Source: an uncultured bacterium (GTDB lineage Bacteria; Patescibacteriota; JACMRA01). From it: DNA of 64,000 bases. The position numbers and the translations under genes were made by a program. Location of the stretch: positions 1,124,491 through 1,188,490 of the forward strand of contig OY969926.1 of the NCBI GenBank assembly GCA_963704645.1, read 5' to 3'. Below, piece after piece: positions 9,976-31,455 of this stretch (within the stretch, counting starts at the first letter, position 1; each line of letters begins with the position of its first letter). The notes below the pieces were generated by a model. That model was not told the DNA's origin. It saw only the letters and a list, made by a program, of their open reading frames with translations, and did not search any database.

Positions 9976-10011
9976 CAAAAATTAAGAGTTCTAGCGTATT
10001 TACTAGAACTC
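9976..10011 (-). terminator. rho-independent terminator of small-ORF cassette B
   Basis: Perfect 9-bp stem GAGTTCTAG/CTAGAACTC plus a T-run on the minus strand. Near-identical to 9641-9677. Confidence 0.6.
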
Positions 10012-10021
10012 CTATTAGATA

Positions 10022-10261
10022 TTAAATTTGAGTATAACCCTCAGGTGGGTTCTCGTCTGGAATATGATCATGTCCAGCTAAACCTGAGTTTTTTACTGCA
10101 ACCAACCGAAAACAGTTTCCGATGTTTTTCGCCCAAAAAGTATGGACAGGAAAAAAGTACATCCAACTCTTCACTTCTTCAGTATAAGTTCCATCTTCAT
10201 TCGAGATGGCTTGCACTTGAATTTCTCGGTCGTTACTGCTAAAATTTCCATCAAATGACAT
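10022..10261 (-). CDS. small hypothetical protein, cassette B (79 aa, ends PPEGYTQI)
   Basis: Distant paralog of 9687-9899 with the same C-terminal motif. The upstream block TTGCCA-17 nt-TTTAAAT is shared with cassette A. Confidence 0.5.
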   Translation of the reverse strand: MSFDGNFSSNDREIQVQAISNEDGTYTEEVKSWMYFFPVHTFWAKNIGNCFRLVAVKNSGLAGHDHIPDENPPEGYTQI

Positions 10262-10583
10262 AAAATACTCTCCATCAAAATTTGATTTGGCTATTTATTT
10301 AAAGCACATAAAAACACATTTGGCAATAGTCTCATTATGACTTCCTAAAAATTAATAATAAAGATTTACATCGATTTTTTTCAATAATGTCATTAATAAT
10401 TAAATCAATATTGTTGTTCACTTTTTCAACATTTTCACTCTTTAGCCTCTGAACAAATCAGTAGTTATAAATCATTAGATCGAAGATATATATTAATTTC
10501 AACCATTGCGATTATTCTTGGTTTATCAGTCTCACAATTATTTACCATCAAAATCTCTAGTTTTTTTCCAGCTCTACCTTAAA

Positions 10584-10602
10584 CCCTGAAACAAGTTCAG
10601 GG
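10584..10602. repeat. hairpin CCCTGAA-ACAAG-TTCAGGG, inverted copy of 9571-9589
   Basis: Read directly. Together with 9571-9589 it brackets the 1-kb two-cassette segment. Confidence 0.7.
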
Positions 10603-10762
10603 GGCGCAGGCTTTGTAGTTCCCTGCTTAAAAAAGATAAAAATGTTCATAACTCCTAAAGTTATACTTAAAGCTAGACATTCCCCTGCCCTTTTGCCAAT
10701 AAATACCAATTAAGCTACAATTTTAACCGAACACAAACCAAAACAGATAGCAGTAAAATTTT

Positions 10763-12166
10763 ATGCGCCAAGCTAAACATACAAAAAAACATTTACACAA
10801 AAAACACAGACACCAGGCCAATTTAAATTCTAAAAAGTACGAACAAAATTTAAATTCCCAGACTAGTTTGTACAGCAAGTTGAAATCTATTATAGGCCGT
10901 TTTGGCCCAGGAATTATAACCGGTGCAAGCGATGATGACCCATCTGGAATTACCACATATTCTCAGGCTGGTGCCAGTTTTGGTTTTCAAACTTTGTGGA
11001 CTGTTGTTATTACCCTTCCATTAATGACTGCTGTTCAAGAAATGTGTGGCAGAATTGGACTGGTAACCAGCATGGGTTTAACCAAAGTTGTAAAAAAACA
11101 CTATCCAAAATGGGTAATTTACTTAATAGGGCTAGTAACCGTTCCTGCTATAATTTTAAACATAGCTGCAGATCTAGCTGGAATGGGAGCAGTTTCCAAC
11201 ATGCTTTTCCCGGCTATTCCAACTTGGGTTTTTACTATTTTGGCGGCTCTATCTATAATGTTTAGTCTAGTCTTATTTTCGTACAAAAAAATTGAAAATA
11301 TTTTGAAATGGTTAACTTTGGTTTTGCTGACATACTTAATTGTACCTTTCTTTATAACCCTAGATTGGGGCTATATTTTATACTCTATTGTTTCACCAAA
11401 AATACAATTTTCTAAGGAATATATTGCCATCATTGTAGGAATTTTAGGTACCACAATTTCACCATATTTATTTTTCTGGGAAGCCAGTATGGAAGTAGAA
11501 GAACACGAAGAAAAATATTCCAAAATTGGAGGTTTGGAGAAAAACACATTTGAAGCAAAGAGCGATGAAACTAATTTCGTAGAAGCTACAGTGGGCGAAG
11601 TTAAAACTATGCGTCAAGACAACGCTTTAGGAATGTTTCTTTCTAACTTTGTGATGTTCTTTATTATTTTAGTTACAGGTTCAGTACTATTTAACGGTGG
11701 AACTGGCGGTATTGACACAGTACAAGAAGCGGCAGCGGCACTAAAACCACTGGCAGGAGATTTTGCCTATTTACTATTTGCAGTTGGGGTAATTGGAACA
11801 GGTTTTTTGGCCATTCCAGTATTGGCTGGTGCTTGCGGCTATATTGTCTCAGAAATGTTTGATTGGCGTGAAGGCATGAACAACAAGTTTAAACAAGCCA
11901 GAGGTTTTTATGAAGTTATTTGTTTTTGTATTTTAATGGGATTAGGTTTAAACATTTCTGGTATTGACCCTATTCAAGGTATGATTTGGTCGGCTATAGT
12001 TTACGGAGTTACAGCGCCAATTTTAATTGGAATTATTATGCACATTGCTAACCGTGAAGACATTATGGGCAAATGGAAAAATGGTTGGCTGGTGAATATT
12101 TTAGGAGGTGCTGGGTTAGTTTTAATGACTGTGGCAGCTGTGGCTTTATTGGTGGTTGGGGTGTAA
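10763..12166 (+). CDS. NRAMP/SLC11-related transporter with a non-canonical metal site
   Basis: 467 aa with about 11 TM segments. GPGIITGASDDDPSGITTYSQAGASFGF aligns to the NRAMP TM1 block, but DPGN is replaced by DPSG. The TM6 MPH block is replaced by ISPY. Confidence 0.85.
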   Translation: MRQAKHTKKHLHKKHRHQANLNSKKYEQNLNSQTSLYSKLKSIIGRFGPGIITGASDDDPSGITTYSQAGASFGFQTLWTVVITLPLMTAVQEMCGRIGLVTSMGLTKVVKKHYPKWVIYLIGLVTVPAIILNIAADLAGMGAVSNMLFPAIPTWVFTILAALSIMFSLVLFSYKKIENILKWLTLVLLTYLIVPFFITLDWGYILYSIVSPKIQFSKEYIAIIVGILGTTISPYLFFWEASMEVEEHEEKYSKIGGLEKNTFEAKSDETNFVEATVGEVKTMRQDNALGMFLSNFVMFFIILVTGSVLFNGGTGGIDTVQEAAAALKPLAGDFAYLLFAVGVIGTGFLAIPVLAGACGYIVSEMFDWREGMNNKFKQARGFYEVICFCILMGLGLNISGIDPIQGMIWSAIVYGVTAPILIGIIMHIANREDIMGKWKNGWLVNILGGAGLVLMTVAAVALLVVGV

Positions 12167-12186
12167 AACAACCTAAATTTAAATAT

Positions 12187-13467
12187 ATGAGTTCAACTGT
12201 TGAAAGTTTTGCGACATCAAAAAATCAGATTAGCAATTACAAAAATGTTCCACCAAATGAAGAAAAGGTTGAACGGGTGGAAAAATTTATTGCAAGATTA
12301 CCTTTAAACGGAGAAGGGAATATTAATTTATATTTACTTGCTGTTGCAGTTTTGGATTATTCAATAAATGCTTCAGTTGAAGAAATTTACGAAGCATTGT
12401 TAAATGTTGGTGGAAATATTGTTTTTACAAAAGTTAAAGTTGAAAAAGGTATTTCATTAATAAAAGGGCAAGAGGAAAGAGTTAAATTGCAAAAAATTGA
12501 AAATCTTAGGAATTTTCTGAGCCAAATAATTTATCTAAATGGAAAAGGTGCAAAATTGGAATTAGTTAAAAGAAATACAGTTGAGGATATTAAATCAAAA
12601 GAACAGACTGAAGGGGAAATACTATTTAATGATTTTGTAGATTTTGCAATTAAAAACTCTGAGGAAATTATTGATACTTGTATAAGTAATGATGAAGAAG
12701 AGTTAGTTGTAAGCCGAGATTTAATTTCAGATTATTTTTATGATAATTTCTATTCTTCTAGTCCAGATCAAAACTTAGAAGTTTCAAAAGAAAAACAACT
12801 AGAATATAGACGTTTGGCCGATAAAGCCCAAGAAATTAATTCTCACATAGAGTATGATGAACGAGGCTGGTATAAAATTAAAGGTGGTAAATTGTATGAA
12901 TACAAAGAAGATGTTATTGGCAGAGTTTATTTTAACGTAGACCCCATGTTTGGGCCCAAGTTATTAAACCAATTGCAAGTTTTATTAAGCCAAAGAGTTT
13001 CTACTTTTCAAGCTAAAATTCCAGAAAGCTATGAAGATAGAAAAGATAACTGCGTATTATATTTTACCAAACAAGATCAAGCAGTAGTACTTGAAATAGT
13101 TAACCAGATTGCAACAAGTAATCAATTTATATTTAGAAATGAACTAGGGAAAGGTCAGAAAAAAATTTTAAAAGGAATTGGTTTTGCCCAAGATGCAACT
13201 GAAGGACCAAGTAAAGATTTTAGGTATTATGAAACGAACAATGATAATATTACTTCTTTTGGTGGAAAACTATCTTTCATTTTTGGCGTAGTATTTAAAG
13301 CAGTAATAGCAAGGCAGCTGGATTGGCAAAAAGATAAGGAAACTATAAAAGAACTGTATAACAAGATTTGTAAAATTCATAATGTTGACCCTAAAGACCC
13401 AGCTTTTCATATACAAGACAACAATTTTGAAACAATAAGAAATTTTGCAGAACAAAACACAGCTTAA
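12187..13467 (+). CDS. hypothetical protein (426 aa)
   Basis: The ORF track starts at 12073 inside the upstream transporter gene. The first ATG after that gene's stop is 12187 (MSSTVESF...). I could not place the family confidently. Confidence 0.7.
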   Translation: MSSTVESFATSKNQISNYKNVPPNEEKVERVEKFIARLPLNGEGNINLYLLAVAVLDYSINASVEEIYEALLNVGGNIVFTKVKVEKGISLIKGQEERVKLQKIENLRNFLSQIIYLNGKGAKLELVKRNTVEDIKSKEQTEGEILFNDFVDFAIKNSEEIIDTCISNDEEELVVSRDLISDYFYDNFYSSSPDQNLEVSKEKQLEYRRLADKAQEINSHIEYDERGWYKIKGGKLYEYKEDVIGRVYFNVDPMFGPKLLNQLQVLLSQRVSTFQAKIPESYEDRKDNCVLYFTKQDQAVVLEIVNQIATSNQFIFRNELGKGQKKILKGIGFAQDATEGPSKDFRYYETNNDNITSFGGKLSFIFGVVFKAVIARQLDWQKDKETIKELYNKICKIHNVDPKDPAFHIQDNNFETIRNFAEQNTA

Positions 13468-13483
13468 TTCCCCCAACAACAAA

Positions 13484-13507
13484 GGCGATGATTAACATCG
13501 CCCCTAC
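13484..13507 (-). repeat. GTAG-hairpin (REP-like) unit GTAGGGGCGATG-TTAAT-CATCGCC between convergent genes; probably also a terminator
   Basis: 7-bp stem at 13484-13490 / 13496-13502. The complement of GTAGG lies at 13503-13507. A T-run follows on the + strand. Confidence 0.6.
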
Positions 13508-13526
13508 CCTAATTTTTAGAAATAAA

Positions 13527-14081
13527 TTAGCTGTTAGACTTTAAGTATTCTAAAATTGTGTCTGCATCGGAAATTTCGAATGGATCTGTTGGACAGTCAT
13601 CAGAAAAACCTGGCTCTATGAACATTTTTGTAATTGTTCCATCTTCAACAACCATGGAGTATCTCCAAGATCTGTCACCAAAACCTAGATTGTTCTTTTT
13701 AACCAACATTCCCATTCCTCTTGTAAAATCTGCATTTCCATCTGGAAGTAAGAAAATGTTATTCACACCTTGTGCCTTTCCCCATTGGAACATTACGAAA
13801 GCATCGTTTACACTTAAACAAATTACTTCATCAACACCTAAGTCTTTGAAAGCTTGGTAATTGTTTTCATAACCTGGTAAATGTGTGCTGGAACATGTCG
13901 GTGTGAAGGCACCTGGTAAAGAGAATAAAACAATTTTCTTTCCTGCAAAAACATCGTTAGTAGATAAATCTTTCCAACTAAATTTGTTTGGACCTTCGGC
14001 ATTTTCATCGCGTACACGGGTTTTAAAAGTTACTTGTGGCACTTTCTGGCCTTCAATATTTTTGTGATCTGAACTGGACAT
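13527..14081 (-). CDS. peroxiredoxin, Prx5-like (AhpC/TSA family)
   Basis: Active-site context LPGAFTPTCS. 184 aa. Typical Prx5 length and layout. Confidence 0.9.
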   Translation of the reverse strand: MSSSDHKNIEGQKVPQVTFKTRVRDENAEGPNKFSWKDLSTNDVFAGKKIVLFSLPGAFTPTCSSTHLPGYENNYQAFKDLGVDEVICLSVNDAFVMFQWGKAQGVNNIFLLPDGNADFTRGMGMLVKKNNLGFGDRSWRYSMVVEDGTITKMFIEPGFSDDCPTDPFEISDADTILEYLKSNS

Positions 14082-14248
14082 ATATTTTAAATTTAATTTT
14101 TAATGGCAATTTCTTACCTAATTAATTAACATTTTAGAGGCACTTTTTGTCAAAGAATTTACCCTATCTATACAGAGCAGTCCAAACTTTGAATATTAAA
14201 AAATATAGACGTTTAGGCTTTTTACACTAATATTATTCTTGTACATTT

Positions 14249-14644
14249 ATGGAGAATTTTATAAAAAACTTTACAAACTGGTTTAGTTTAAAACCTGAGT
14301 TAGAATTCTTAAAAAGTTCTAAAAATTTTAATGAAAGAGAAATTTGGTGGACACATTTAGGCAGCAACTTAGGTTTTGAAATTGATGGTAAAACCTTACA
14401 ATACACCAGGCCAGCACTGATACTTAAAAAAATTTCTACCCAAACAGCATTAATACTTCCGCTTACCTCAAAAGACAAGAATGGAAGTTGGTACATTCCA
14501 ATAATTGTAGATGAAAAAGAAGGAAGAGTAATTCTTTCTCAAAGCCGAACTATAGATAGTAAAAGATTAAAATCCAGACTTGTGACTATTAATGAAAGAG
14601 AATTTAAAAATATAAAAGAAAAATTTATTCAATTTATTGGGTAA
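14249..14644 (+). CDS. PemK/MazF-family toxin-like protein with N-terminal extension, no adjacent antitoxin ORF
   Basis: REIWWTHLGSNLGFEIDGK...RPALIL...LPLTS...ILSQSRTIDSKRL matches the MazF/PemK fold pattern. Paralog of 19210-19605. Confidence 0.75.
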   Translation: MENFIKNFTNWFSLKPELEFLKSSKNFNEREIWWTHLGSNLGFEIDGKTLQYTRPALILKKISTQTALILPLTSKDKNGSWYIPIIVDEKEGRVILSQSRTIDSKRLKSRLVTINEREFKNIKEKFIQFIG

Positions 14645-14690
14645 AAATTGTCCTCCCATTTCTGGGAGGTTAGCGACTGACGTCGAAATT
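14643..14690 (-). ncRNA. candidate ~45-nt convergent small RNA ending in a GAAA-loop hairpin and T5 run overlapping the MazF stop codon
   Basis: Predicted only. It lies downstream of the promoter at 14725-14697. The stem is 14663-14669 / 14652-14658. The arrangement is duplicated at 19170-19218 with a compensatory stem change. Confidence 0.3.
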
Positions 14691-14696
14691 ACTATG

Positions 14697-14725
14697 ATAA
14701 TAATACTTACCATGACTTTTGTCAA
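14697..14725 (-). promoter_or_regulatory. sigma70-like promoter pointing toward the 3' end of the MazF-like gene
   Basis: On the minus strand: TTGACA (14725-14720), 17-nt spacer, TATTAT (14702-14697). Confidence 0.45.
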
Positions 14726-14959
14726 TTATGTATCCTTACTTTCCAATTTTATTTTCCCAATAAAATAACACAAAGGTAAACATTATCATGTTTCAGAATT
14801 ACAGTAACACCCTGATAAAGAAATATCAAGAAGAATTTTTACAACAAGTTAGTAGGTTTAAATCTTTTTGATTAATTTTCAACTGAAATAATTGCTAGAT
14901 AATAACTAAAATGTACAACCAGAGCAAACAAAGCCTTCAAATTATTTTGCTGAAAATAA

Positions 14960-16048
14960 CTACCCCGCCAAATTCTTAAGGTGGAACTTATTATAAGCCC
15001 AAGAGCCAAGCAATATTAGAAATACTGACGAGCCCATCAAAACTAATAGCTCTGGAATAATATCGCCCAAACCTTTGTTGAATTGCAAAACTTTTCTAAA
15101 AGCTTCTGTTGCATAAGCACTTGGAACTAGGCTGGTTAAACTTGGACCGCCAAAAATTTTAATCTCTGGAAAAGCCACGAAAGCTCCAGACAAAAAACCC
15201 AGAATTACCGAGGCCAGGGTTCCTATATTAGCTGCCAAATTGTCGTTTTTAAAGCTAGAAACTATAACCATGCCAAGACCAACTGTGAACAAATTAGTAG
15301 GAATTGAAACCAATAAAGCCAAGCTTAATGCCGACCAACTAGCTGAATAACCAAAAACTAGAACAGCCCCAAAAAGCAAAATGGTTTGAAACAAAGCTAT
15401 AACAGATTGACTTAATAAATGCCCAACAATTATCTGCCAACTTTGAACTTTGGCTGTAAAATACCTAAATGTATAATTTCGCCTAATTTCGTTGCTCATT
15501 TGGAAAATTATTTGAGGTAGTAAATTTAAAATTCCGTAAACAATTAAACCAGGAACAAGATAAGTAAAGGCCGTGGTTTTTTCAGAATTACTTACAGTAG
15601 AAACAACTTCTAATTTAGATTCATTTTGATAGAAAAACTGATTAGAATAACTGGAAATAATGCCAATAACAGCATTACTTTTAACACTGTAGGTATTGGC
15701 GTAAACTTTAACTTTAGGCTGTGTAGAAAATTCTAGGAAGGCGTCCAACTTACCATCTTGCACCTTACTTTTACCTTCTTCCAAATTAGCAATTTCAGAG
15801 ATTTCAAACTGGGAAACATTTTTAGGAGTTTTAATATTTTGCAATTCTTTAATAAAACTAGTCTGATACAAAGCCGAAGAATTTGATGAATAAGCTATTT
15901 TAAAAACCTGCTCACTGCTATTGGTGTTGAAAACCAAGGCAAATATTCCAATAAATACCACTGGTAAAATGAACACAATGGACCAGCTTTTAATGTCACG
16001 TAAAATATATAGCAGGTTTTTTTTAGCAATTGATAATGTTTTATTCAT
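14960..16048 (-). CDS. ABC-2 type transporter permease
   Basis: N-terminal TM, large extracytoplasmic loop, then a cluster of 5 TM segments. It lies immediately downstream of the ABC ATPase gene. Confidence 0.8.
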   Translation of the reverse strand: MNKTLSIAKKNLLYILRDIKSWSIVFILPVVFIGIFALVFNTNSSEQVFKIAYSSNSSALYQTSFIKELQNIKTPKNVSQFEISEIANLEEGKSKVQDGKLDAFLEFSTQPKVKVYANTYSVKSNAVIGIISSYSNQFFYQNESKLEVVSTVSNSEKTTAFTYLVPGLIVYGILNLLPQIIFQMSNEIRRNYTFRYFTAKVQSWQIIVGHLLSQSVIALFQTILLFGAVLVFGYSASWSALSLALLVSIPTNLFTVGLGMVIVSSFKNDNLAANIGTLASVILGFLSGAFVAFPEIKIFGGPSLTSLVPSAYATEAFRKVLQFNKGLGDIIPELLVLMGSSVFLILLGSWAYNKFHLKNLAG

Positions 16049-16069
16049 AAGTATTTTATGTAAAAAGTT

Positions 16070-17008
16070 TTATTCACGAATTTCTTTACCGGTAAGAATT
16101 AAGAAAATATCTTCCAAGGAAGGTTCTCTCATTTCCAAGTTATTAGTTTGAACATTTAAATTCGCTAGGGCAGGAAGTAATTCTTGCAACACAAAATTCG
16201 AATTTTTAGCCAGTAAACTAAAGCCTTTCTCTGAAAAAATAGCGGTTGGGAAAAGTAATTCTAAACCTAATATTTGTTCAGAATTTAAGCTATCTACTTT
16301 TACTTCAAGCAAAGTTCCGTTGCCATATTTTTCTTTTAATTCATCAACTGTGCCTTCAGCAATAATTAAACCATCATCTATAATAACTACATAATCACAT
16401 AGTTTTTCTGCCTCTTCCAAATAGTGATCGGTTAAAATTACAGCCTTGTTTTGGTTTTTTAAGTTTTTAATGAAGTCCCATAAAAATATTCTAGATTGAG
16501 GGTCAATTCCCGGTGAAGGCTCGTCTAAAAATACCATACTTGGATTATGAATAATAGAAATGGCTAAGTTTAACCTTCTTTTATATCCCCCAGAAAGATT
16601 TATTGCCAAAGTATTCAATTCCGATTGTAGGTTTAGGCCAGCAATTAAAATATCTGTATTTTCTTTAATTTGTTGTTTGCTCATACCCTGTAAAGACCCT
16701 GTAAATAAAAGGTTTTCGTGCAAAGTTAATTTATCCCAAATTACAATTTCTTGAGGCATAACACCTATTTTGCTTCTAAAATTACTTGGAACAAATTTAA
16801 AGGTTTCTCCTTCAATTTCAATCTCTCCAGAAGTTGGCGTAATTTGCCCTGAAAGCATTTTAATTATTGTAGATTTACCAGATCCGTTTGGACCAAGCAA
16901 TCCCAGAATTTGTCCTTGTCTAATTTGTAAACTAACATTTTTCACTGCTAGCTTAGAATTTTTGCCATCATTAAAACTTCTACTTAAATTGCGGGCATTT
17001 ATTTGCAT
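16070..17008 (-). CDS. ABC transporter ATP-binding protein
   Basis: Walker A GPNGSGKST, signature LSGGYKRRL, Walker B VFLDEP. Confidence 0.92.
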   Translation of the reverse strand: MQINARNLSRSFNDGKNSKLAVKNVSLQIRQGQILGLLGPNGSGKSTIIKMLSGQITPTSGEIEIEGETFKFVPSNFRSKIGVMPQEIVIWDKLTLHENLLFTGSLQGMSKQQIKENTDILIAGLNLQSELNTLAINLSGGYKRRLNLAISIIHNPSMVFLDEPSPGIDPQSRIFLWDFIKNLKNQNKAVILTDHYLEEAEKLCDYVVIIDDGLIIAEGTVDELKEKYGNGTLLEVKVDSLNSEQILGLELLFPTAIFSEKGFSLLAKNSNFVLQELLPALANLNVQTNNLEMREPSLEDIFLILTGKEIRE

Positions 17009-17058
17009 AAAGCCACTAACAATAGTTTTGAATTATTTGTAAACCCAACTTTAAAAGA

Positions 17059-17622
17059 TTATTCTGGTTTTGGTGCAGGTGCTTTGATGGTTTCATTAAC
17101 CGGCTTATAATTTTGTAAACCTGCAGGAACTGGAGCATCAATAGTTGAACCAGGAGGGTTAACTTTTATTGAAATATTATTATTTAGATTCACTTGCTCA
17201 TCTTTACTAAGTTCAACATTAAGATTGCCTTGTATTGGAAGCGGCACAACTTGTTGAGTACAGGTTTGAGCTTCAGAACTAGGAAGTTTGGAATCTAAAT
17301 TTAAAGTTAAAATAATTTTATCACCTAGCTTAGCTAAATTGTAAGATTTCAAAGATACACAGCCATTTTGGCCATAAACTTTACCGTTATAACTGATTGA
17401 TTTACTTTGGGTTGAATATTTAAAAAATATATCTTCCTTCTTAACATCTATCTGTACGTTTTCAGTTTTGCTAGCTGCTGTTTTGGGTTGGGTAAAAGTA
17501 TAGTATGCAAACAAACCACATACCAACAATATTACACCAAGAATTACTAAAATAATTGTTGTTCTATTACGCCCTGTAATTAAACTAGCCTGATTGTTAA
17601 AATTTGGGGTTAAAATATTCAT
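17059..17622 (-). CDS. membrane-anchored hypothetical protein
   Basis: Single N-terminal TM (TIILVILGVILLVCGLFAYYTF). Same strand as the ABC pair, just upstream of it. Confidence 0.65.
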   Translation of the reverse strand: MNILTPNFNNQASLITGRNRTTIILVILGVILLVCGLFAYYTFTQPKTAASKTENVQIDVKKEDIFFKYSTQSKSISYNGKVYGQNGCVSLKSYNLAKLGDKIILTLNLDSKLPSSEAQTCTQQVVPLPIQGNLNVELSKDEQVNLNNNISIKVNPPGSTIDAPVPAGLQNYKPVNETIKAPAPKPE

Positions 17623-17805
17623 ATTAAAGTTTTCTGCAATTGTTATTAGAGATTAATTTATGTTAGTTTAATATAGTTTCTTTAAATAAGCAAACAATTC
17701 AGGAGCAAGGATAATATTTCGTAATTCTCTAAATGTGTGTTCCATAAATGCTTATCATAAAGATGAAAAAATAACTACTAAAAAATATTCGCTGGAAGCT
17801 GTTAT

Positions 17806-19074
17806 TTATAATATATTTTCACGAACCTCATTTACCATTTGCATTTCTTCATTTGTAGGAATAATCCAAACTTGTATTGTAGAATTTTCGGAAGAAATTT
17901 TGACTGAACTTTTACATTCATCAGAATTTGCATTAACTTGAAGGTCTAAATTAAGCCCAAGAAAAGCAAATCTTTCACAAATTTTTTGACGAATTAAATG
18001 CGAACCTTCCCCAACTGCTCCACTAAATATTATAGCTTCAGCACCATCTAAAACCGATATATAAGCTCCTAACTTCTCTATAATTCTTTCCACAAAAAAG
18101 TCTAAAGCAAATTTAGCCTGCGGTTTAATATTATAGTCTTGAATGATAGTAACTAAATTGCTAGTATAACCCGATATTCCTAAAATACCAGATTTTTTAT
18201 TTAAAATTGTAGCTGTTTCCTGCCAGCTTAGGTTTTCAGCTTGATTATAAAAACTTAAAGCTTCCAAATTTACTTCCCCAGAACGTGTTCCCATTGGCAA
18301 ACCTTCGTTCGGGCTAAAACCCATGCTAGTTTGATAACTTTCACCATCTTTTATAGCGCAAAGGCTAGAACCACTTCCAAGATGTAAAGTAACAATTTTG
18401 CCCTTAGACAATCCATTATTTTTACTTAATGTTTTCTCGCTCGAGACATCGCTAACACCCTTGGCGGATACTAGCTGATCTACCAAGTTACCACTAAACT
18501 TGTTCTTGTAATATGTCTGCGATAGATATTTGTGGGAAAGTCCGTGAAACCCGAAGCGTTTTATTCCGCACTCTTTATAAGCTTTAATGGGAAGAGCGTA
18601 AATCTGATTAATTTCTGGTAAACTAGTGTGAAAAGCAGTATCAAAAACTGCTATTTGTTTAAGTTTGGTGAAGTTTTTTTGTAATAGTTTAATTTCAGCT
18701 ATAGCTGGCGGATTATGTAACGGAGCAATTTGATTTAACTTTTCCAATTCAACAATTACATTTTCATCAATTTGGGTTGAATTAGTAAATTTATTTCCCC
18801 CGTGAACAATTCTATGAATAACCGTTAATTCTAAAAAATTATCTACAATTTTTAATTCTTGAATTAAATTTAGAACTAAAATAGAACCTTCTAAATATTG
18901 CGATGAAGAAAGAGGGCGAGTTTCAACTTTATTATTAAAAGTAAACACAAACTGATACTCATTGGCCATGTAATTAGTTAATTTGCCAAACAGAATTGGA
19001 GAGTTGGAATTAGTAGGATAAAGGCTAAATTTTAAAGAAGAAGATCCTTTGTTTAAAGCTAAATAGTTGGGCAT
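17806..19074 (-). CDS. ackA: acetate kinase
   Basis: N-terminal ALNKGSSSLKFSLY, HRIVHGG and HLGSGSS motifs. It carries a ~30-aa insertion before HLGSGSS. Confidence 0.9.
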   Translation of the reverse strand: MPNYLALNKGSSSLKFSLYPTNSNSPILFGKLTNYMANEYQFVFTFNNKVETRPLSSSQYLEGSILVLNLIQELKIVDNFLELTVIHRIVHGGNKFTNSTQIDENVIVELEKLNQIAPLHNPPAIAEIKLLQKNFTKLKQIAVFDTAFHTSLPEINQIYALPIKAYKECGIKRFGFHGLSHKYLSQTYYKNKFSGNLVDQLVSAKGVSDVSSEKTLSKNNGLSKGKIVTLHLGSGSSLCAIKDGESYQTSMGFSPNEGLPMGTRSGEVNLEALSFYNQAENLSWQETATILNKKSGILGISGYTSNLVTIIQDYNIKPQAKFALDFFVERIIEKLGAYISVLDGAEAIIFSGAVGEGSHLIRQKICERFAFLGLNLDLQVNANSDECKSSVKISSENSTIQVWIIPTNEEMQMVNEVRENIL

Positions 19075-19134
19075 AGGTTGATTTTAATGAAGTGTATAAG
19101 TCTGAGCTTGAATTTGTAACTAAATTAAATAGTG

Positions 19135-19163
19135 TTGACATAAATTATAACAAATGTTCTAAT
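19135..19163 (+). promoter_or_regulatory. sigma70-like promoter pointing toward the 3' end of the second MazF-like gene
   Basis: TTGACA (19135-19140), 17-nt spacer, TCTAAT (19158-19163). Confidence 0.4.
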
Positions 19164-19169
19164 TAGCTT

Positions 19170-19218
19170 ACAAATTGCCGTTAGGTACGACCTCTCAGAA
19201 ATGAGAGGGTTAATTTTT
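19170..19218 (+). ncRNA. candidate ~50-nt convergent small RNA (second copy)
   Basis: Predicted only. Hairpin CCTCTCA-GAAA-TGAGAGG (19191-19208) followed by a T5 run (19214-19218) that overlaps the last codons of 19210-19605. Confidence 0.3.
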
Positions 19219-19605
19219 GCCCAAAATAATCTGAGACATTTTTCTTTTAAGAATCAATAATTCGTTATCACTAATTTTTCCAAGTTTGTAGCTTAATCTT
19301 TGTACATCTATAGCTTTCATCTGAGAAAGTAAAACTGATATATTTTTCTGACGCATTTTTAAATTGAAATAATATTTATTATCTTTAATTTTAGAACTTG
19401 TTGGCAAACCATAGAATAGTTTATGGTTGAACTTTCGTATTATCACAACTGGACGTAAAAACTGGTCACCTTTTCCGTTTTCCTCATGACCTATATTTTC
19501 TCCTAAATGACACCACCATATCTCCGCTTCTCTAAAAACCGGGTATTTTTCATTTTCATGTAATTTTGGTTTTAACTTAAACCAGTCCAAAAAGTTTTTA
19601 ATCAT
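19210..19605 (-). CDS. PemK/MazF-family toxin-like protein with N-terminal extension, no adjacent antitoxin ORF
   Basis: AEIWWCHLGENIGHEENGK...RPVVII...LPTSS...LLSQMKAIDVQRL. Roughly one-third identical by eye to 14249-14644. Confidence 0.75.
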   Translation of the reverse strand: MIKNFLDWFKLKPKLHENEKYPVFREAEIWWCHLGENIGHEENGKGDQFLRPVVIIRKFNHKLFYGLPTSSKIKDNKYYFNLKMRQKNISVLLSQMKAIDVQRLSYKLGKISDNELLILKRKMSQIILGKN

Positions 19606-19719
19606 ACTTTTGTTTATATTTTATGCTTAATAAGCTACAATTTTTAGGCAAGAAAAAAGACCAATGTATTTTTGTACAAAGGCCTATTTAAAATATTACT
19701 CAATCGAGAATGGGCATGT

Positions 19720-20403
19720 TTAGAAACCAGCTGTAGGGCTTCCAAAAATTTCCACTTCCACTTTTTTATCTCTCAAATATACCAGACTGTCTGGATACTT
19801 GAAATCGATGGTTAGCGGGAAATTTCCCAAACCTTGGTAATCACCAATAACTATTTTCCGCTCCCCCTTCTTCTCACCTAAACTTAGGCCGTAAGCTTCG
19901 TCAGTTTTAGGACCTTTGGTGGTTACTTGAAACTGGAGTTTTAGACCAGTTGCAGTTTTCGCAATTGAATGACACTCAATTGCAGACTGCAATTTAGGCT
20001 CACCATTTTCATCAAGCCAAAAGCTTAGAAGAGTAGGATAGCCATTTGGCATTATCATTTTCACATGAATAAGCTTTGTTCCAGGCCAGCTGACTGACAC
20101 TTCATAAGCTCTTCTGTCTGAAGAAACAAATGTCTCTTTTTTTACTGTTTGCTGGCCATATTTTGACTGTTGGTTCGCAAGCCAATTTTTAGTTGCACTA
20201 GCCATATCTTTCTCAAAGTCATCAAAACTTAGCTGATAAACTAGCTTTGGTGAGGTTAGCTCGATCTGCTGTACAGGATTTTCTGTGTTGGTGGGTTGTG
20301 TTAAAGTTTGCGTAACTCCACAAGCATTTAAACTAACAACACAAAAAACGCTGACAAGTAGAAAAGTCACAAACTGCAAAACTTTTTTTAATGAGCGAGT
20401 CAT
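19720..20403 (-). CDS. putative lipoprotein
   Basis: Signal peptide with lipobox VVSLNAC-G. 227 aa. Confidence 0.7.
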   Translation of the reverse strand: MTRSLKKVLQFVTFLLVSVFCVVSLNACGVTQTLTQPTNTENPVQQIELTSPKLVYQLSFDDFEKDMASATKNWLANQQSKYGQQTVKKETFVSSDRRAYEVSVSWPGTKLIHVKMIMPNGYPTLLSFWLDENGEPKLQSAIECHSIAKTATGLKLQFQVTTKGPKTDEAYGLSLGEKKGERKIVIGDYQGLGNFPLTIDFKYPDSLVYLRDKKVEVEIFGSPTAGF

Positions 20404-20507
20404 CTTGAAATCTCCATCAATTATAAGTGAATTATAGTTTTAAACTATACTTATATAAAAGCACATATTTTGGGTTAAAGCAAGCTTGTTTTTCTTTTAT
20501 TTTCCCA

Positions 20508-21854
20508 CTATATTCCCATGTTGTTATAATGTGTGCCGAAAGATAATATATTAATTTGCCCGTCATAGCCTTGGTTCATACAAAGTCTATTTTTATCGTT
20601 AAGTCTGGCTGACATAAAACAATTTGCCCCATTTTTGATAAATTCTAAGTTTAGGCCTTTGTAATTAGAGTAATGGCTAACAAAAGCCTCCAGATTTCCA
20701 CCACATTGTGCTATAAGTTTAAAAATATCTGTTATTTTCTGTACATTTTTGTAGTTGTTTAGAACCGACATTGAGTTATTTTTATAAGCCTTGTTTTCAA
20801 TTTTATAATTAATACCTAGAGATGTTAAATTGTGTTTTAGTAGTTCTATACCAGTGTAATTAGCGTAGTCTTGCTGTGTTTCATAAGTAGTGCTTTCCGC
20901 TTCTTGATAAGGCTGATATTGATATTCGTACTCATAATTTTGCTCTGGCTCAGAGCTTTCATATCCTCGTTCAAAACTCTCAGGCTCTTCTATTAAACTT
21001 TCCTCTTGATCATCTAAATTATCATCTGCAGAGGTTTCACGATCAAGCAACCAATAGGTATTATTTATAATTTGATGTAATACAGACTCATTGCTTTTAA
21101 AACCATCAAACATCACAGCAGGATTATTTTGTATTGGAACTAAAATATCGCTTTGGAAATTATACCCAAAAGCTGTTTGCAATGTTGCTCTAGTGTCATT
21201 TAATGTAGTACTGATAAAGCCTGTAGTAAGATTTACATTTTTTGCTCTGCTAGATTTGGCAAAACCAGTTTGTTTAACTCTATCCATAGTGTTATTTTCC
21301 AGCTTAATCACGCCCATTTTATCTAAATTTATTAGCGAAAGCCCTAGTGATGAATGTAAACGTACCAGCTCTATTAATAAATTTTCAGTGTCCCAATATC
21401 CTTCACCGGAATCAGGGTTAACCATAAACAATGAACCAAGTCTTGAATTTCTTAAATTTTTAACGTCATTCAAAACGTACAAGCTTACTATCATTAAATA
21501 AATACATTTATAGTTTATACTTAGAATGTTTTCAGTGTCACCTTGGTCTATTGAATTAGCAATTTCATCCATAACCTCTTTAGTAAGATTTATGCAATCT
21601 TCAAGAAAGTCACCTGGCCCGCCTTGGCTACTCCATTTACCAGATAAAATACCTGATAATAATAAGTTTTCAATTTCATCTAATATATAATATGTCTGAT
21701 ATCTTGTGTCAAAATTTTCAAAGTAATTAATTAAGTCTAAGCCTTCTTTTCTCAATGCCCATCTTTCTGTTGAATTAAGATTTTTCTCTAAGAAAAATAA
21801 TATCCCTTTATATACATCTGATCTTGTATCTTCAAAATAACTGTCTCTTTCCAT
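20508..21854 (-). CDS. hypothetical protein with an acidic/Tyr-rich linker and a C-terminal RelE/ParE/YoeB-like domain
   Basis: The last ~95 aa (INYKIENKAYKN...QKITDIFKLIAQ...FMSARLNDKNRLCMNQGYDGQINILSFGTHY) follow the RelE/YoeB pattern (YKIEFS.., ..SRRI..HRLVY......I.I...G.H.Y). The N-terminal ~330 aa are unassigned. Confidence 0.7.
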   Translation of the reverse strand: MERDSYFEDTRSDVYKGILFFLEKNLNSTERWALRKEGLDLINYFENFDTRYQTYYILDEIENLLLSGILSGKWSSQGGPGDFLEDCINLTKEVMDEIANSIDQGDTENILSINYKCIYLMIVSLYVLNDVKNLRNSRLGSLFMVNPDSGEGYWDTENLLIELVRLHSSLGLSLINLDKMGVIKLENNTMDRVKQTGFAKSSRAKNVNLTTGFISTTLNDTRATLQTAFGYNFQSDILVPIQNNPAVMFDGFKSNESVLHQIINNTYWLLDRETSADDNLDDQEESLIEEPESFERGYESSEPEQNYEYEYQYQPYQEAESTTYETQQDYANYTGIELLKHNLTSLGINYKIENKAYKNNSMSVLNNYKNVQKITDIFKLIAQCGGNLEAFVSHYSNYKGLNLEFIKNGANCFMSARLNDKNRLCMNQGYDGQINILSFGTHYNNMGI

Positions 21855-21903
21855 AATAAAATTAACTCAAGCACAAAAATTTAAGTTTAGCAAAATATTT
21901 TGC

Positions 21904-24387
21904 CTACCCCTGCTCTTCCCATTTCCAACTCAAAACCTCTGGTAAATCATTTCCGTTTTCAACAATGTATTTTTTGTGTTCTACTAGTTTTGATTTTAAG
22001 ATTTGGATTAATTCTACAGACTTTTCTGCTATAATTGAATTATTTTTTGAGGCTATTTCCAAAGCTTTAATTGCCATGTCAAACCTTGATGTTCCATTTA
22101 AAACTTGCATGTCAAAAGGTGTTGTTGTACTGCCTTGTTCCATATAACCCAAAATTGTGGTTTTACTAGCTAAACTTGTACCATACAAAATTTGTTTTAA
22201 AGCACTTGGGTAACCGTGGAAGTTTATTAAAACTTCAGTATTTTCTGGGAAAATTCGCTTATAAATTTGTTCAGCATTTTCAGTCGAGGAGACAGCACCC
22301 AAACCAAAACTAGTTAGCTGGCTTATATTTACATATTTAAATGAAAGTTCTGGAGCGTTTTGTTTCAGCCAGCTAATTGCAGCCATAGTTTCCAAAGTTT
22401 GATAGTCGCCAGCTGAAGCTAAAATAATATCTGGAGATGAATTTTGAGAGTTGTTTACACCAGAATTACCAGCAAATTCCCATTCCATAATACCTGCTTC
22501 AACTTGAGCTTTAGCCTTATTTACATCAAGCCATTGTGGAAGATCAGTTTTACCTGCTACAATTAAATTTACAGTGTTATTTTCGGTTAAAACTTTTTTT
22601 GCAACTTCTAAACCAATATTAACATCTACTGGGAAATATACATTGGCGAAATCTACATTTTTAGATAGCAAAGTATTAATTAGAACAGGGTTTTGATGCG
22701 TAAAACCGTTATGATCTTGCCTCCAAGTTGTGCTGGTTGCAATGTAATTCATGCTTGGTCTACTGCCCCTCCAATTAAATTTGTTCGCCTGACTGGAATA
22801 CTTAATAAATTGGTCAATTTGACTTATAATAATGGCTAGAAAAGCTTCGTAAGAAATTAAAATACCGTAACCCCCAAAGGCATTATAACCTTGCATCCAG
22901 CTTTGCAAAGTTTGCTCGCTAAGTATCTCCATAATTTGTCCACTTTCACCTAAATTGTCGTCCCATTCTTTTAGTGGAAGATTAAAAACTCTGTCTGTGT
23001 TTTCGTATAAAGTTTCTAATCGGTTAGACTCGGCTTCGTCTGGGGAAAAAATTCTGAATTTATTTGGGTTCTGGCTAATAATTTGGCTTAAATATTTTGA
23101 AACATGAACCATTAAATTACCATTTTGACCTTTAACTAAAGTTTGGATTTGGAAGTTTAAAATATCAGGCAAAGCAAGCGGTTGATTAGCTAATGATAAA
23201 GTTGATTGAATATTACCAAGTCTATTTTCTGGGGATGGTAAAAACTTTGTTACTTCTGGACGCACCGTGTTTTGCAATGTGTCTACCAGCTCTTCAATTT
23301 TGTAAGATTCAAGCCAGCTTTTTAGCACTTCAAATTCAGCTTTATTTTGTTTAGGATTTTTTAAAGGAAGCCCGTGAGCCAAATTATTTCCTTCAATTTT
23401 CCCCCCATTAGCAAATTTCGGCCCAGTCCAACCCTTCAAAGTTCGCAGTAAAATAACAGGTAATTTAGTGGTTTTACCAGCTTTATAATTTACAATTTGT
23501 TGATAAGCTAAGGTTAAAGTTTCCAAATACGTTGTAAGCCATTCTTCACTTTCATTTAAATCAGCAAAGTTCTGAGTAACCAAAAATGGTTTATAATTTA
23601 AGCCTTCAAAGTACTTAAATAAATCTTCATCACTCATTCTGCTGTATACAGTTGGGCCAGAAATTTTGTAATCATTTAAGTGTAAAATTGGTAGAACAGC
23701 TCCGTCAGATTCACGGTTAATAAATTTATTACTTTGCCAAGAAGCAGCCAAAGCACCAGTTTCAGCCTCACCGTCACCAACCACGCAAACCGTAATTAAA
23801 TGGGGGTTAGATAATATAGAGCCATAAGCTAAACCAAGAGAATAACCTAACTCTCCCCCTTCATTTATACTACCAGGGAGACCAGGATAAGTGTGACTTG
23901 GAAAGCCTTCAGGCCAGCTAAAATTTTTAATTAGGTTTTCTGCACCAGTTAAAGTTTCAGGGTATTGTGGGTAATATTTGCCTAAACTTCCCTCAAGCCA
24001 CAAATTGCTTAAAATAGCAGGAGCTCCATGCCCTGGCCCAACAATTAACAACATTTTTGCAGGGGAATACTGGTCATTTAACGTCTCACCTACTTTCTTA
24101 ACATCTTCAGTAGCGGAGAATCTTGATTCTCCATTTCCAATGTGCAAGTTAAAATTCAACCAATTCAAACCAGCATAAATTAAATTAAGCCCTGGAACAG
24201 TTCCCCAATGCCCAACTACTCTTTCTTTCAAATGATGTTCAACTAATGGTTCTTCCAACCAAAAATTATCTTTTAAATATAAAGTAGAAACAGAAATATA
24301 GTTAGTTAAACGAATATTTTTTATTAGCCAGTCTAAATCTGCACTGTATTTATTTTTATTTAAAGGATTTTTTGAAGTTTCCGGCAT
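21904..24387 (-). CDS. xfp: xylulose-5-phosphate/fructose-6-phosphate phosphoketolase
   Basis: 827 aa. VVGHWGTVPGLNLIYAGLN, GPGHGAPA and the TPP-binding GDGEAETG blocks are typical of phosphoketolases. Confidence 0.95.
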   Translation of the reverse strand: MPETSKNPLNKNKYSADLDWLIKNIRLTNYISVSTLYLKDNFWLEEPLVEHHLKERVVGHWGTVPGLNLIYAGLNWLNFNLHIGNGESRFSATEDVKKVGETLNDQYSPAKMLLIVGPGHGAPAILSNLWLEGSLGKYYPQYPETLTGAENLIKNFSWPEGFPSHTYPGLPGSINEGGELGYSLGLAYGSILSNPHLITVCVVGDGEAETGALAASWQSNKFINRESDGAVLPILHLNDYKISGPTVYSRMSDEDLFKYFEGLNYKPFLVTQNFADLNESEEWLTTYLETLTLAYQQIVNYKAGKTTKLPVILLRTLKGWTGPKFANGGKIEGNNLAHGLPLKNPKQNKAEFEVLKSWLESYKIEELVDTLQNTVRPEVTKFLPSPENRLGNIQSTLSLANQPLALPDILNFQIQTLVKGQNGNLMVHVSKYLSQIISQNPNKFRIFSPDEAESNRLETLYENTDRVFNLPLKEWDDNLGESGQIMEILSEQTLQSWMQGYNAFGGYGILISYEAFLAIIISQIDQFIKYSSQANKFNWRGSRPSMNYIATSTTWRQDHNGFTHQNPVLINTLLSKNVDFANVYFPVDVNIGLEVAKKVLTENNTVNLIVAGKTDLPQWLDVNKAKAQVEAGIMEWEFAGNSGVNNSQNSSPDIILASAGDYQTLETMAAISWLKQNAPELSFKYVNISQLTSFGLGAVSSTENAEQIYKRIFPENTEVLINFHGYPSALKQILYGTSLASKTTILGYMEQGSTTTPFDMQVLNGTSRFDMAIKALEIASKNNSIIAEKSVELIQILKSKLVEHKKYIVENGNDLPEVLSWKWEEQG

Positions 24388-31377: not shown

Positions 31378-31455
31378 GGGTATGTAGCTCAGCCTGGTTA
31401 GAGCACAGATCTTATAAGTCTGCGGTCGGTGGTTCAAATCCACCCATACCCACCA
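31378..31455 (+). tRNA. tRNA-Ile with anticodon UAU, CCA encoded
   Basis: Cloverleaf folded by hand. Acceptor GGGTATG/CATACCC. D arm GCTC..GAGC. Anticodon stem CAGAT/GTCTG with loop CTTATAA. T arm GGTGG-TTCAAAT-CCACC. Discriminator A followed by CCA. Confidence 0.9.

Follow-up and report, generated by a model that had tools for sequence, protein, structure and literature searches.

Type I toxin-antitoxin pairs with overlapping 3' ends (e.g., txpA/RatA, bsrG/SR4, RNA I/RNA II of the Enterococcus faecalis par locus) consist of convergent genes, one for a toxin and one for an abundant small antisense RNA whose terminator abuts or overlaps the 3' end of the toxin gene, and have no protein antitoxin. 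A similar layout can be found at two loci of the 64,000-nucleotide stretch of DNA analysed here (contig OY969926.1, positions 1,124,491 to 1,188,490, of assembly GCA_963704645.1 from an uncultured bacterium of the Patescibacteriota; the whole stretch is referred to as the window). Each locus possesses a gene for a MazF/PemK-family endoribonuclease (toxin 1 and toxin 2) that is faced on the opposite strand by a predicted small RNA (sRNA 1 and sRNA 2), for which its association with the toxin makes the role of an antitoxin likely. However, type I toxins are nearly all hydrophobic peptides of <60 amino acids, whereas the window toxins are soluble RNases of 131 amino acids with the MazF fold, and their coding sequences are overlapped by just 2-9 nt. 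A text search of the T1TAdb paper (24 families) found no mention of MazF or PemK.

Type III systems (ToxIN, CptIN, TenpIN) resemble the window loci in the combination of a Kid/MazF-class endoribonuclease with a structured RNA and in the presence of an own cognate RNA for each toxin paralog. The type III antitoxin is encoded by tandem repeats upstream on the same strand and is processed by the toxin, whereas the antitoxin candidate in the window is single-copy, convergent and predicted to be independently transcribed; furthermore, the type III toxin belongs to the ToxN family and the window toxins to PF02452. With the type II systems MazEF, PemIK and Kis-Kid they share the toxin family and the probable catalytic residues, but an upstream MazE/PemI-type gene is present neither in the window nor in 80 related loci, and the toxin has an extra N-terminal segment. 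The Rfam motif pemK (RF02913, Cis-reg) is likewise named for its association with pemK and presumably occurs in Firmicutes, in 5' untranslated regions (UTRs) and on the sense strand; neither the window units nor those of the related loci L001, L007, L044, L088 and L089 gave a match to it. SymE of E. coli differs from the window toxins in its AbrB/MazE fold, and the overlap of SymR is with the 5' end and the ribosome-binding site of the symE gene rather than with the 3' end. The pair resembles the window loci in that a cis-encoded antisense RNA is reported to repress a non-membrane, RNA-cleaving, MazEF-related protein (PMC1891008).

Comparative genomics has shown that a substantial fraction of type II toxin genes lack an adjoining antitoxin gene, and an RNA antitoxin has only been guessed at for them (Makarova et al. 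2009, PMC2701414). The loci described here suggest a testable answer for one large group of these "solo" toxins. They add a small RNA class that is absent from Rfam, would bring the best-studied fold of RNase toxins under RNA-based control, and provide candidate regulatory small RNAs for the Candidate Phyla Radiation (CPR). An existing cultivable test bed is the plasmid pVir of Campylobacter jejuni with its small RNA CJpv3.

Units facing the two toxin genes

The two loci have the following features (window coordinates; hairpins are numbered from the toxin end).

14249-14644, plus strand: toxin 1, 131-aa PemK/MazF-family endoribonuclease (open reading frame; Pfam PF02452 PemK_toxin, E 8e-12)
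14697-14725, minus strand: sRNA 1 promoter, TTGACA (14725-14720), 17-nt spacer, TATTAT (14702-14697), 11/12 match
14643-14690, minus strand: predicted sRNA 1, ~48 nt, start placed 7 nt past the -10 box
14674-14685, minus strand: hairpin 2 of sRNA 1, CGAC-GUCA-GUCG, class A 5' domain (folding, motif comparison)
14652-14669, minus strand: hairpin 1 of sRNA 1, CCTCCCA-GAAA-TGGGAGG, 7-bp stem with GAAA tetraloop (terminator scan, folding)
14643-14647, minus strand: U5 run of the sRNA 1 terminator, after ACAA (sequence, terminator scan)
19210-19605, minus strand: toxin 2, 131-aa paralog of toxin 1 (open reading frame, PF02452)
19135-19163, plus strand: sRNA 2 promoter, TTGACA (19135-19140), 17-nt spacer ending with TG (19155-19156), TCTAAT (19158-19163) (sequence)
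19170-19218, plus strand: predicted sRNA 2, ~49 nt (folded as 19168-19218: minimum free energy -15.3 kcal/mol, z -3.45)
19176-19187, plus strand: hairpin 2 of sRNA 2, UGCC-GUUA-GGUA with a G·U pair, class B 5' domain (folding, motif comparison)
19191-19208, plus strand: hairpin 1 of sRNA 2, CCUCUCA-GAAA-UGAGAGG, followed by a U5 run at 19214-19218 (terminator scan, folding)
19144-19173, minus strand: sense-strand promoter at locus 2, TTGTAA-18-TATAAT with TG (promoter scan)

An earlier note on this DNA, made from the sequence alone, had described a near-consensus promoter opposite toxin 1 that points back at the gene, followed by a 7-bp hairpin with a GAAA loop and by a T5 run over the toxin stop codon on the antisense side. 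Both descriptions hold. TTGACA-17-TATTAT matches the consensus in 11/12 positions and was the top promoter match in a scan of window positions 10000-24000, and the hairpin and the T-run lie exactly where the note had placed them. The scan for terminator-like sites reported CCTCCCA-GAAA-TGGGAGG followed by ACAATTTTT, the U5 run of which overlaps the TAA stop of toxin 1 (14642-14644); hairpin 1 together with the U-run is a predicted intrinsic terminator of sRNA 1. In contrast, the supposed "20 nt of unique sequence" between promoter and hairpin 1 turned out to contain a second small hairpin (14685-14674 at locus 1; 19176-19187 at locus 2). sRNA 1 would thus consist of an AAUUU leader, hairpin 2, a CUAA linker, the terminator hairpin and the tail ACAAUUUUU, and it folds into two hairpins with a minimum free energy of -17.4 kcal/mol (z -3.95).

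At locus 2, hairpin 1 differs from its counterpart at locus 1 by one compensatory C:G to T:A change. The 18-nt hairpin pattern has two sites in the 64-kb window, both of them at toxin ends, with 0 expected by chance. As the promoter tops the scan, the hairpin recurs in compensated form at toxin 2 and the pattern is found nowhere else in the 64 kb, we regard the observation of the earlier note as confirmed. sRNA 2 has the same order of elements (ACAAAU leader, hairpin 2, CGA linker, terminator hairpin, GUUAAUUUUU tail). Its promoter combines a perfect -35 box with a weak -10 box, TCTAAT, which has a C at the critical second position and is preceded by the TG of an extended -10. The scan of 10000-24000 missed it, as the -10 box has no A at position 2; it passes a relaxed composite test, and the orthologous promoter of the related locus L001 has TAAAAT as the -10 box. 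Furthermore, it overlaps face to face with the sense-strand promoter (19173->19144) that probably serves the acetate kinase gene (17806-19074). The claim that the architecture of locus 1 recurs at the paralog is therefore right for the hairpin, the compensatory change and the -35 box, with the correction that the -10 box of locus 2 is poor and that a sense promoter overlaps the RNA promoter there.

The two toxins are 40% identical to each other, and both score above the curated PF02452 threshold (45.7 and 47.4 bits, cut-off 23.1). A profile of the toxin family matches B. subtilis EndoA/YdcE and Staphylococcus aureus MazF, the closest solved structures, with E values of ~1e-6. Since these matches set in only at profile position 30, they are preceded by a family-specific N-terminal addition of ~30 residues (FIKNFTDWFxLKPxL...). 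In the alignment, the invariant R54-P55 of the family lines up with the RP of EndoA, which we take to be that of the catalytic Arg25, and the motif PL(T/S)(S/T)K lines up with the EndoA stretch ITAQ, which we assume to hold Thr48; the catalytic Arg and Thr/Ser of MazF are thus probably kept. An AlphaFold model, made from an alignment of 7 sequences only, is of low confidence, with a mean predicted local distance difference test score (pLDDT) of 62 and with values of <50 at the N-terminus, which is thus effectively unmodelled.

As had been claimed, no open reading frame (ORF) for an antitoxin of the MazE/PemI/AbrB or ribbon-helix-helix type is found beside either window toxin. In 80 related loci, small same-strand ORFs located up to 250 nt upstream or downstream of the toxin were clustered, and likewise gave no recurrent family, only two trivial pairs. 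A PADLOC search had no match, and tandem or direct repeat arrays of the type III style were not found around either window locus. No Rfam family covers the unit; for RF02913 there was no match at E <= 10 in window 14100-14900, none at the gathering threshold in 20 loci and none at E <= 5 on both strands of 5 loci.

The unit in relatives of the toxin

A word-indexed protein search returned 6 relatives only, therefore alignment-based scans were needed. When species-representative genomes were pattern-scanned on the basis of the family alignment, 332 relatives were confirmed, and 80 of the 332 loci were taken further. Nearly all of these 80 come from metagenome-assembled genomes of Patescibacteria/CPR, among them Saccharibacteria, Peribacteria, Peregrinibacteria, Gracilibacteria, Paceibacterota and Woesebacteria. 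In an exhaustive profile search (E <= 1e-10), the toxin subfamily comprised 1640 clusters at 50% identity, and nearly all of the best 150 matches were aligned at almost full length.

The 130 nt past the toxin stops contain, read on the toxin strand, an A-run, a GC hairpin, a second hairpin, an AT-rich stretch and TTGTCAA, in this order. In 89 toxin 3' flanks, a promoter with at least 10/12 matching positions occurred antisense to the toxin in 70% and on its own strand in 11%, compared with 5% of random background windows of the same loci; with at least 11/12 positions the values were 34%, 2% and 0.7% (random 220-nt windows of related loci). Among 80 flanks at the level of at least 9/12, the -35 box is TTGACA in 38 and TTGACT in 20, and the spacer is 17 nt long in 45. 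The combination of a promoter and a suitably spaced GC hairpin was found antisense in 72/89 flanks and sense in 6/89; the distance between the -10 box and the terminator stem has a median of 27 nt (interquartile range 27-29). When toxin ORFs were defined with a hidden Markov model, the composite unit was found antisense at 77 of 96 and sense at 10. The conserved promoter-hairpin unit is not a chance feature.

Hairpin 2 is conserved and covarying in the relatives, and its sequences fall into four classes. A covariance model, R1, was built from 17 units of classes A and D only, because MAFFT misaligned the variable stems across all classes; since R1 covers just these two, the counts for classes B and C rest on descriptor scripts. 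R1 gave 42 matches at E <= 1 in 470 kb. In the window they lie at the two toxin loci only (sRNA 1, 14643-14697, 50.9 bits; sRNA 2, 19171-19218, 17.6 bits, E 0.13), and in 84 other sources almost only at toxin stops, on the opposite strand. The class-specific motifs of leader and hairpin 2 had 59 matches at toxin ends and 4 elsewhere (0.48 Mb, both strands); the class A motif matched 8 times, always antisense at toxin 3' ends and never elsewhere, and the class B motif 10 times at toxin ends and once elsewhere. The expectation of the earlier note that the unit accompanies this MazF subfamily in other genomes is therefore supported, as both the model and the motifs match almost only antisense at toxin 3' ends. 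Its remark that an RNA partner would be unusual for the family applies to textbook MazEF and fails for the N-terminally extended subfamily, where an RNA partner is the rule.

In the R1 alignment, 12 of the 13 modelled base pairs have changes on both sides. The proportion of paired cells is 88%, versus 70% in shuffles (0/500 as high) and 38-60% with slid partners, in an alignment that was fitted to the model and thus favours the structure somewhat. A U-run follows the hairpin on the antisense strand only. On this strand the terminator loops are of the GNRA type in 36/57 relatives (GCAA in 16, GAAA in 16), and those of hairpin 2 are often UUCG or GUAA, whereas the terminator loops read on the toxin strand are unremarkable UUGC or UUUC. 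A strand-symmetric count of G·U pairs gave 24 for the antisense and 3 for the sense strand (p = 5e-5), and the predicted antisense RNAs fold more stably than their complements. The U-run, the loop types and the G·U counts place the RNA on the strand opposite the toxin.

Tandem arrays of the toxin gene are present in L001 (an ENA contig, 4 copies) and L007 (a JGI contig, 3 copies), with one RNA unit per copy. The 80-135-nt gaps between the toxin genes of these arrays are taken up by the RNA unit and leave no room for a protein gene. Toxin 2 of the window is 74% identical to the product of the fourth toxin gene of L001, and leader, hairpin 2 and CGA linker of sRNA 2 (UACAAAUUGCCGUUAGGUACGA) are, as read by eye, identical in the unit of this copy. 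Some loci (L014, L022, L045, L051, L054, L074, L076, L080) possess, in the ~60 nt to each side of the toxin stop, a three-hairpin variant of the small RNA, in which hairpin 1 is followed by an A-rich spacer, not by a U-run, and the real terminator hairpin with its U-run lies within the last ~30 nt of the toxin coding sequence. By eye, the antisense overlap with coding sequence in L014, L022, L045, L054, L074 and L076 is ~30 nt.

R1 also found orphan units without an adjoining toxin ORF, at L071 2999-3056 (41.7 bits) and at L021 223-277 (53.8 bits); the one in L071 stands directly after a toxin-linked unit.

Outside the chromosomes of Patescibacteria, a tblastn search of plasmids revealed toxin homologs that include the N-terminal extension on Campylobacter, Helicobacter and Nitratiruptor plasmids, the only genera with relatives in the plasmid collection. 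The viral collection contained 2 toxin relatives only, therefore there is no clear link to phages. The protein CJJ81176_pVir0047, encoded at 30634-31038 of pVir of C. jejuni 81-176, is 40% identical to toxin 2 over residues 5-103. A TGaTATAAT box past pVir0047 predicts an antisense start near 31119, and this is the transcription start site (TSS) mapped for the small RNA CJpv3. CJpv3 (pVir minus strand, 31119-31043, 77 nt) has a TSS determined by differential RNA-seq and is Northern-positive (Dugar et al. 2013, PMC3656092 Table S12), so a transcript of the kind that the earlier note had supposed is mapped at a homologous plasmid locus. Dugar et al. gave no function to CJpv3 (PMC3656092). In their Table S5, the step height of its TSS is 16164, the top value among the pVir rows considered here, versus 28 for the toxin's own TSS, i.e., the start signal of the RNA is ~580-fold above that of the toxin mRNA.

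Like the window units, CJpv3 is convergent, with a promoter ~80 bp past the stop codon and a GC hairpin ending 5 nt from it; the RNA itself ends 5 nt past the toxin stop. Unlike them, it is 77 nt long, has three hairpins and is preceded by an extended -10 promoter in the style of Epsilonproteobacteria. R1 had no match at E <= 1 at the pVir locus (L088), which is a weak test, as the model comprises classes A and D only. An antisense RNA antitoxin, CjrA, and a toxin, CjpT, were reportedly described on pVir by Shen et al. in 2016 as a "type I" pair. CJpv3 and pVir0047 are possibly this pair. Should CjpT be pVir0047, the system would be of a known but little-noticed kind, whereas its wide distribution among Patescibacteria would, to our knowledge, remain novel. 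pVir also holds a second convergent pair: at 25268-25609 (L090), the small RNA CJpv2 (TSS 25268, plus strand) faces pVir0034, a hydrophobic peptide of 41 amino acids (MLFILFLYVFLNSFC...). This textbook-looking type I candidate could also be CjrA/CjpT. Furthermore, toxin residues 28-80 have a partial and unannotated match on many Campylobacter plasmids (tetO plasmids). One such plasmid, pTet, has an 81-nt Northern-positive small RNA, CJpt4, at 40999-40919, convergent between pTet0047 and tetO (PMC3656092 Table S12), and the CJpt4 region of C. jejuni 81-176 pTet may be a second, decayed copy of the toxin-sRNA module.

Probable antitoxin role and possible mode of action of the RNA

The antitoxin role of the RNA is suggested by the strict pairing of one RNA with one toxin, by the lack of a protein partner, by the high ratio of RNA to mRNA start signals in C. 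jejuni and by the existence of orphan units. That each locus is a two-gene module of a toxin and an RNA antitoxin, in which an antisense RNA acts on the 3' region of the toxin transcript, is a reading for which we see about equal reasons for belief and doubt. In this module, the toxin would be a MazF/PemK-fold endoribonuclease with ~30 extra N-terminal residues, and its partner a separate gene on the opposite strand, 75-85 bp downstream, with a sigma-70-type promoter (TTGACA-17-TAtAAT) firing toward the toxin. The product would be an RNA of 48-50 nt composed of a 5-6-nt leader, a 4-5-bp class-defining hairpin, a short YGA linker, a GC-rich hairpin, usually GNRA-capped, and a U-run that would stop transcription on the toxin stop codon. 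As no U-run is present on the toxin strand, toxin transcripts should read through the hairpin, and their 3' UTR should then be complementary to the small RNA over its whole length. The abundant small RNA would then pair with this region and open the protective 3' hairpin, and the RNA-mRNA duplex would be degraded by RNase III and 3' exonucleases, which would keep toxin synthesis low; if the short RNA were lost, the toxin would be set free. In B. subtilis, the type I pairs txpA/RatA and bsrG/SR4, which overlap at their 3' ends, act in such a manner. The convergent layout and the location of the terminator inside the toxin coding region in the three-hairpin variants speak for antisense action. 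Pairing at the toxin 3' end is, in our tentative judgement, the likeliest single mechanism, ahead of direct binding to the protein, even if its own chance remains somewhat below one half.

A number of points weigh against this reading. Neutralisation of the toxins by these RNAs is a candidate function, proposed from sequence comparison, and antisense action would require that toxin transcription indeed continues past the hairpin, as is presumed here. The earlier note had predicted an RNA of 45-50 nt, partly antisense to the toxin 3' end; the length is right (~48 nt), but the overlap with coding sequence is 2 nt only for toxin 1 and 9 nt only for toxin 2, where the tail of sRNA 2 covers the last two codons and the stop, and the complement of the RNA lies mainly in the presumed read-through 3' UTR. 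Pairing of the small RNAs with the translation-initiation region of their own toxin is not preferred either (cognate -18.0 versus non-cognate -17.3 kcal/mol, p = 0.17). Locus 2 has the defective -10 box and the overlapping sense promoter, and the strict composite test was failed by 17 of the 89 loci, in most of which the hairpins are still visible by eye. The unpaired nucleotides of leader and YGA linker are conserved within classes, which cis-antisense pairing would not require, and GNRA and UUCG loops are closed, stable and poor starters of loop-loop kissing; both features fit a protein-binding RNA better. Finally, on a Nitratiruptor plasmid (L089 1955-2143) a 62-aa ORF that looks ribbon-helix-helix-like by eye begins 74 nt past the toxin stop and overlaps the promoter region of the small RNA. 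It may encode either the protein antitoxin of that lineage or a plasmid copy-control gene upstream of rep.

ToxI inhibits ToxN by direct RNA-protein binding, and ToxN has the Kid/MazF fold. By analogy, the structured RNA could bind the MazF-fold protein as a pseudo-substrate or scaffold and block its RNA-binding groove, in which case the convergence would only ensure co-inheritance. This fits the conservation of unpaired leader and linker nucleotides and of the hairpin-2 sequence within the four classes, the RNA classes that appear to follow toxin subclades (compared were W1 with L001 copy 1 and L008, and W2 with L001 copy 4), the stable GNRA/UUCG loops in place of kissing loops, the minimal coding overlap and the ~580-fold excess of the RNA start signal in C. 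jejuni. The conserved N-terminal segment, which is not seen in solved MazF structures, could have been added for RNA binding. We nevertheless consider this explanation unlikely, since the units form no tandem repeat array and have no sign of processing sites, the toxin belongs to PF02452 rather than to the ToxN family, and copies 1-3 of L001 have almost the same hairpin 2, which would allow poor discrimination if recognition took place at the protein level. Similarly doubtful is the more specific proposal that a MazF-family RNase is neutralised by direct action on the protein of a structured 48-nt RNA, made from a single-copy gene with a transcript of its own, with the N-terminal extension as the RNA dock. 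If true, it would unite a type I gene layout with a type III mechanism in a distinct toxin-antitoxin architecture, would be the norm for a subfamily of far more than 1000 clusters of 50% identity with its centre in Patescibacteria, and would account for some of the surplus of "solo" type II toxins that has long been noticed.

The RNA might also modulate the toxin without being its antitoxin, either by fine-tuning the formation of the mRNA 3' end or by insulating the neighbours through transcriptional interference; the toxin would then be restrained by a trans-encoded protein, by low expression or by its own N-terminal extension. An antisense RNA that tunes a type II mazEF is indeed reported (aMEF, PMC8749433), the unit at locus 2 has the toxin gene on one side and, on the other, a co-directional acetate kinase gene that possesses a promoter itself, and the orphan units in L071 (2999-3056) and L021 (223-277) have no toxin, although orphan antitoxins are to be expected in toxin-antitoxin biology. 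An interference device, however, would not need the strong constraint on sequence and structure of the RNA 5' domain, the unit accompanies the toxin whatever is downstream (a convergent gene, a co-directional gene or another toxin), and a recurrent candidate protein partner was not found among the small ORFs of the 80 loci; such a modulator role seems quite improbable to us. Still far less probable is a reading on the sense strand, with the hairpin as a terminator or stabiliser of the toxin mRNA, the AT-rich stretch as the promoter of the next gene and the antisense match as chance. It could appeal to the number of promoter-like matches in the region, which is not above that in shuffles (46 versus 54.7), to the good sense promoter at locus 2 and to the nearly palindromic TTGTCAA, which therefore also reads as a sense -35 box in arrays. 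This reading is already contradicted by the strand tests: the U-run of the hairpin is on the antisense side only, GNRA loops and the excess of G·U pairs are antisense-specific, and the antisense promoter is conserved at a fixed spacing, whereas sense matches are at background level. Moreover, the gene downstream of locus 1 is convergent, so that no sense promoter is needed there, and the antisense transcript was observed in C. jejuni.

Toxin cassettes and neighbouring genes

The arrays of L001 (1745-3850) and L007 (464-1960) consist of 4 and 3 paralogous cassettes of toxin and small RNA in tandem. In these cassettes, DNA conservation is far stronger in the first ~55 nt of the toxin genes and in the region past TTGTCAA than in the remainder of the genes, a pattern suggestive of gene conversion. 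The small RNA of one cassette and the toxin of the next one may have a common -35 box in the near-palindrome TTGTCAA/TTGACAA. The L007 array (flanks 1-452 and 1959-2789) appears to be inserted in a gene for a type IIG/Eco57I-like methyltransferase, with motif I (DPACGSGAF) upstream of the array and motif IV (NPPY) downstream; the ORF downstream of the array opens with the same MPTLT codons as the toxins. The cassette arrays, together with the resemblance of the class B hairpin 2 (GTTAGGC/GCCTAAC) to attC core sites, had raised the idea of integron attC sites. It was rejected because hairpin 2 of the other three classes is unrelated and the two "cores" overlap in a 12-nt hairpin.

The same TTGTCAA motif as at the unit ends in arrays is present upstream of toxin 1, in window 14140-14175 (TTTTTGTCAAAG). 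It could be the -35 box for toxin 1 (TTGTCA-16-TATACA) and, on the other strand, that of the divergent peroxiredoxin gene (13527-14081). The genes near the window toxins encode peroxiredoxin, an ABC transporter, acetate kinase and larger unannotated proteins; toxin 1 is followed by a convergent ABC-2 permease gene and toxin 2 by the co-directional acetate kinase gene (17806-19074). Elsewhere in the window, a 464-aa protein with a HopA1 effector-like domain (PF17914, E 2e-13) is encoded at 12073-13467, its ORF overlapping the end of an Nramp gene by ~90 nt. A 1948-aa ORF is located at 808-6654, and a tRNA-Ile gene with a TAT anticodon at 31378-31455 is the sole tRNA gene in the 64 kb.

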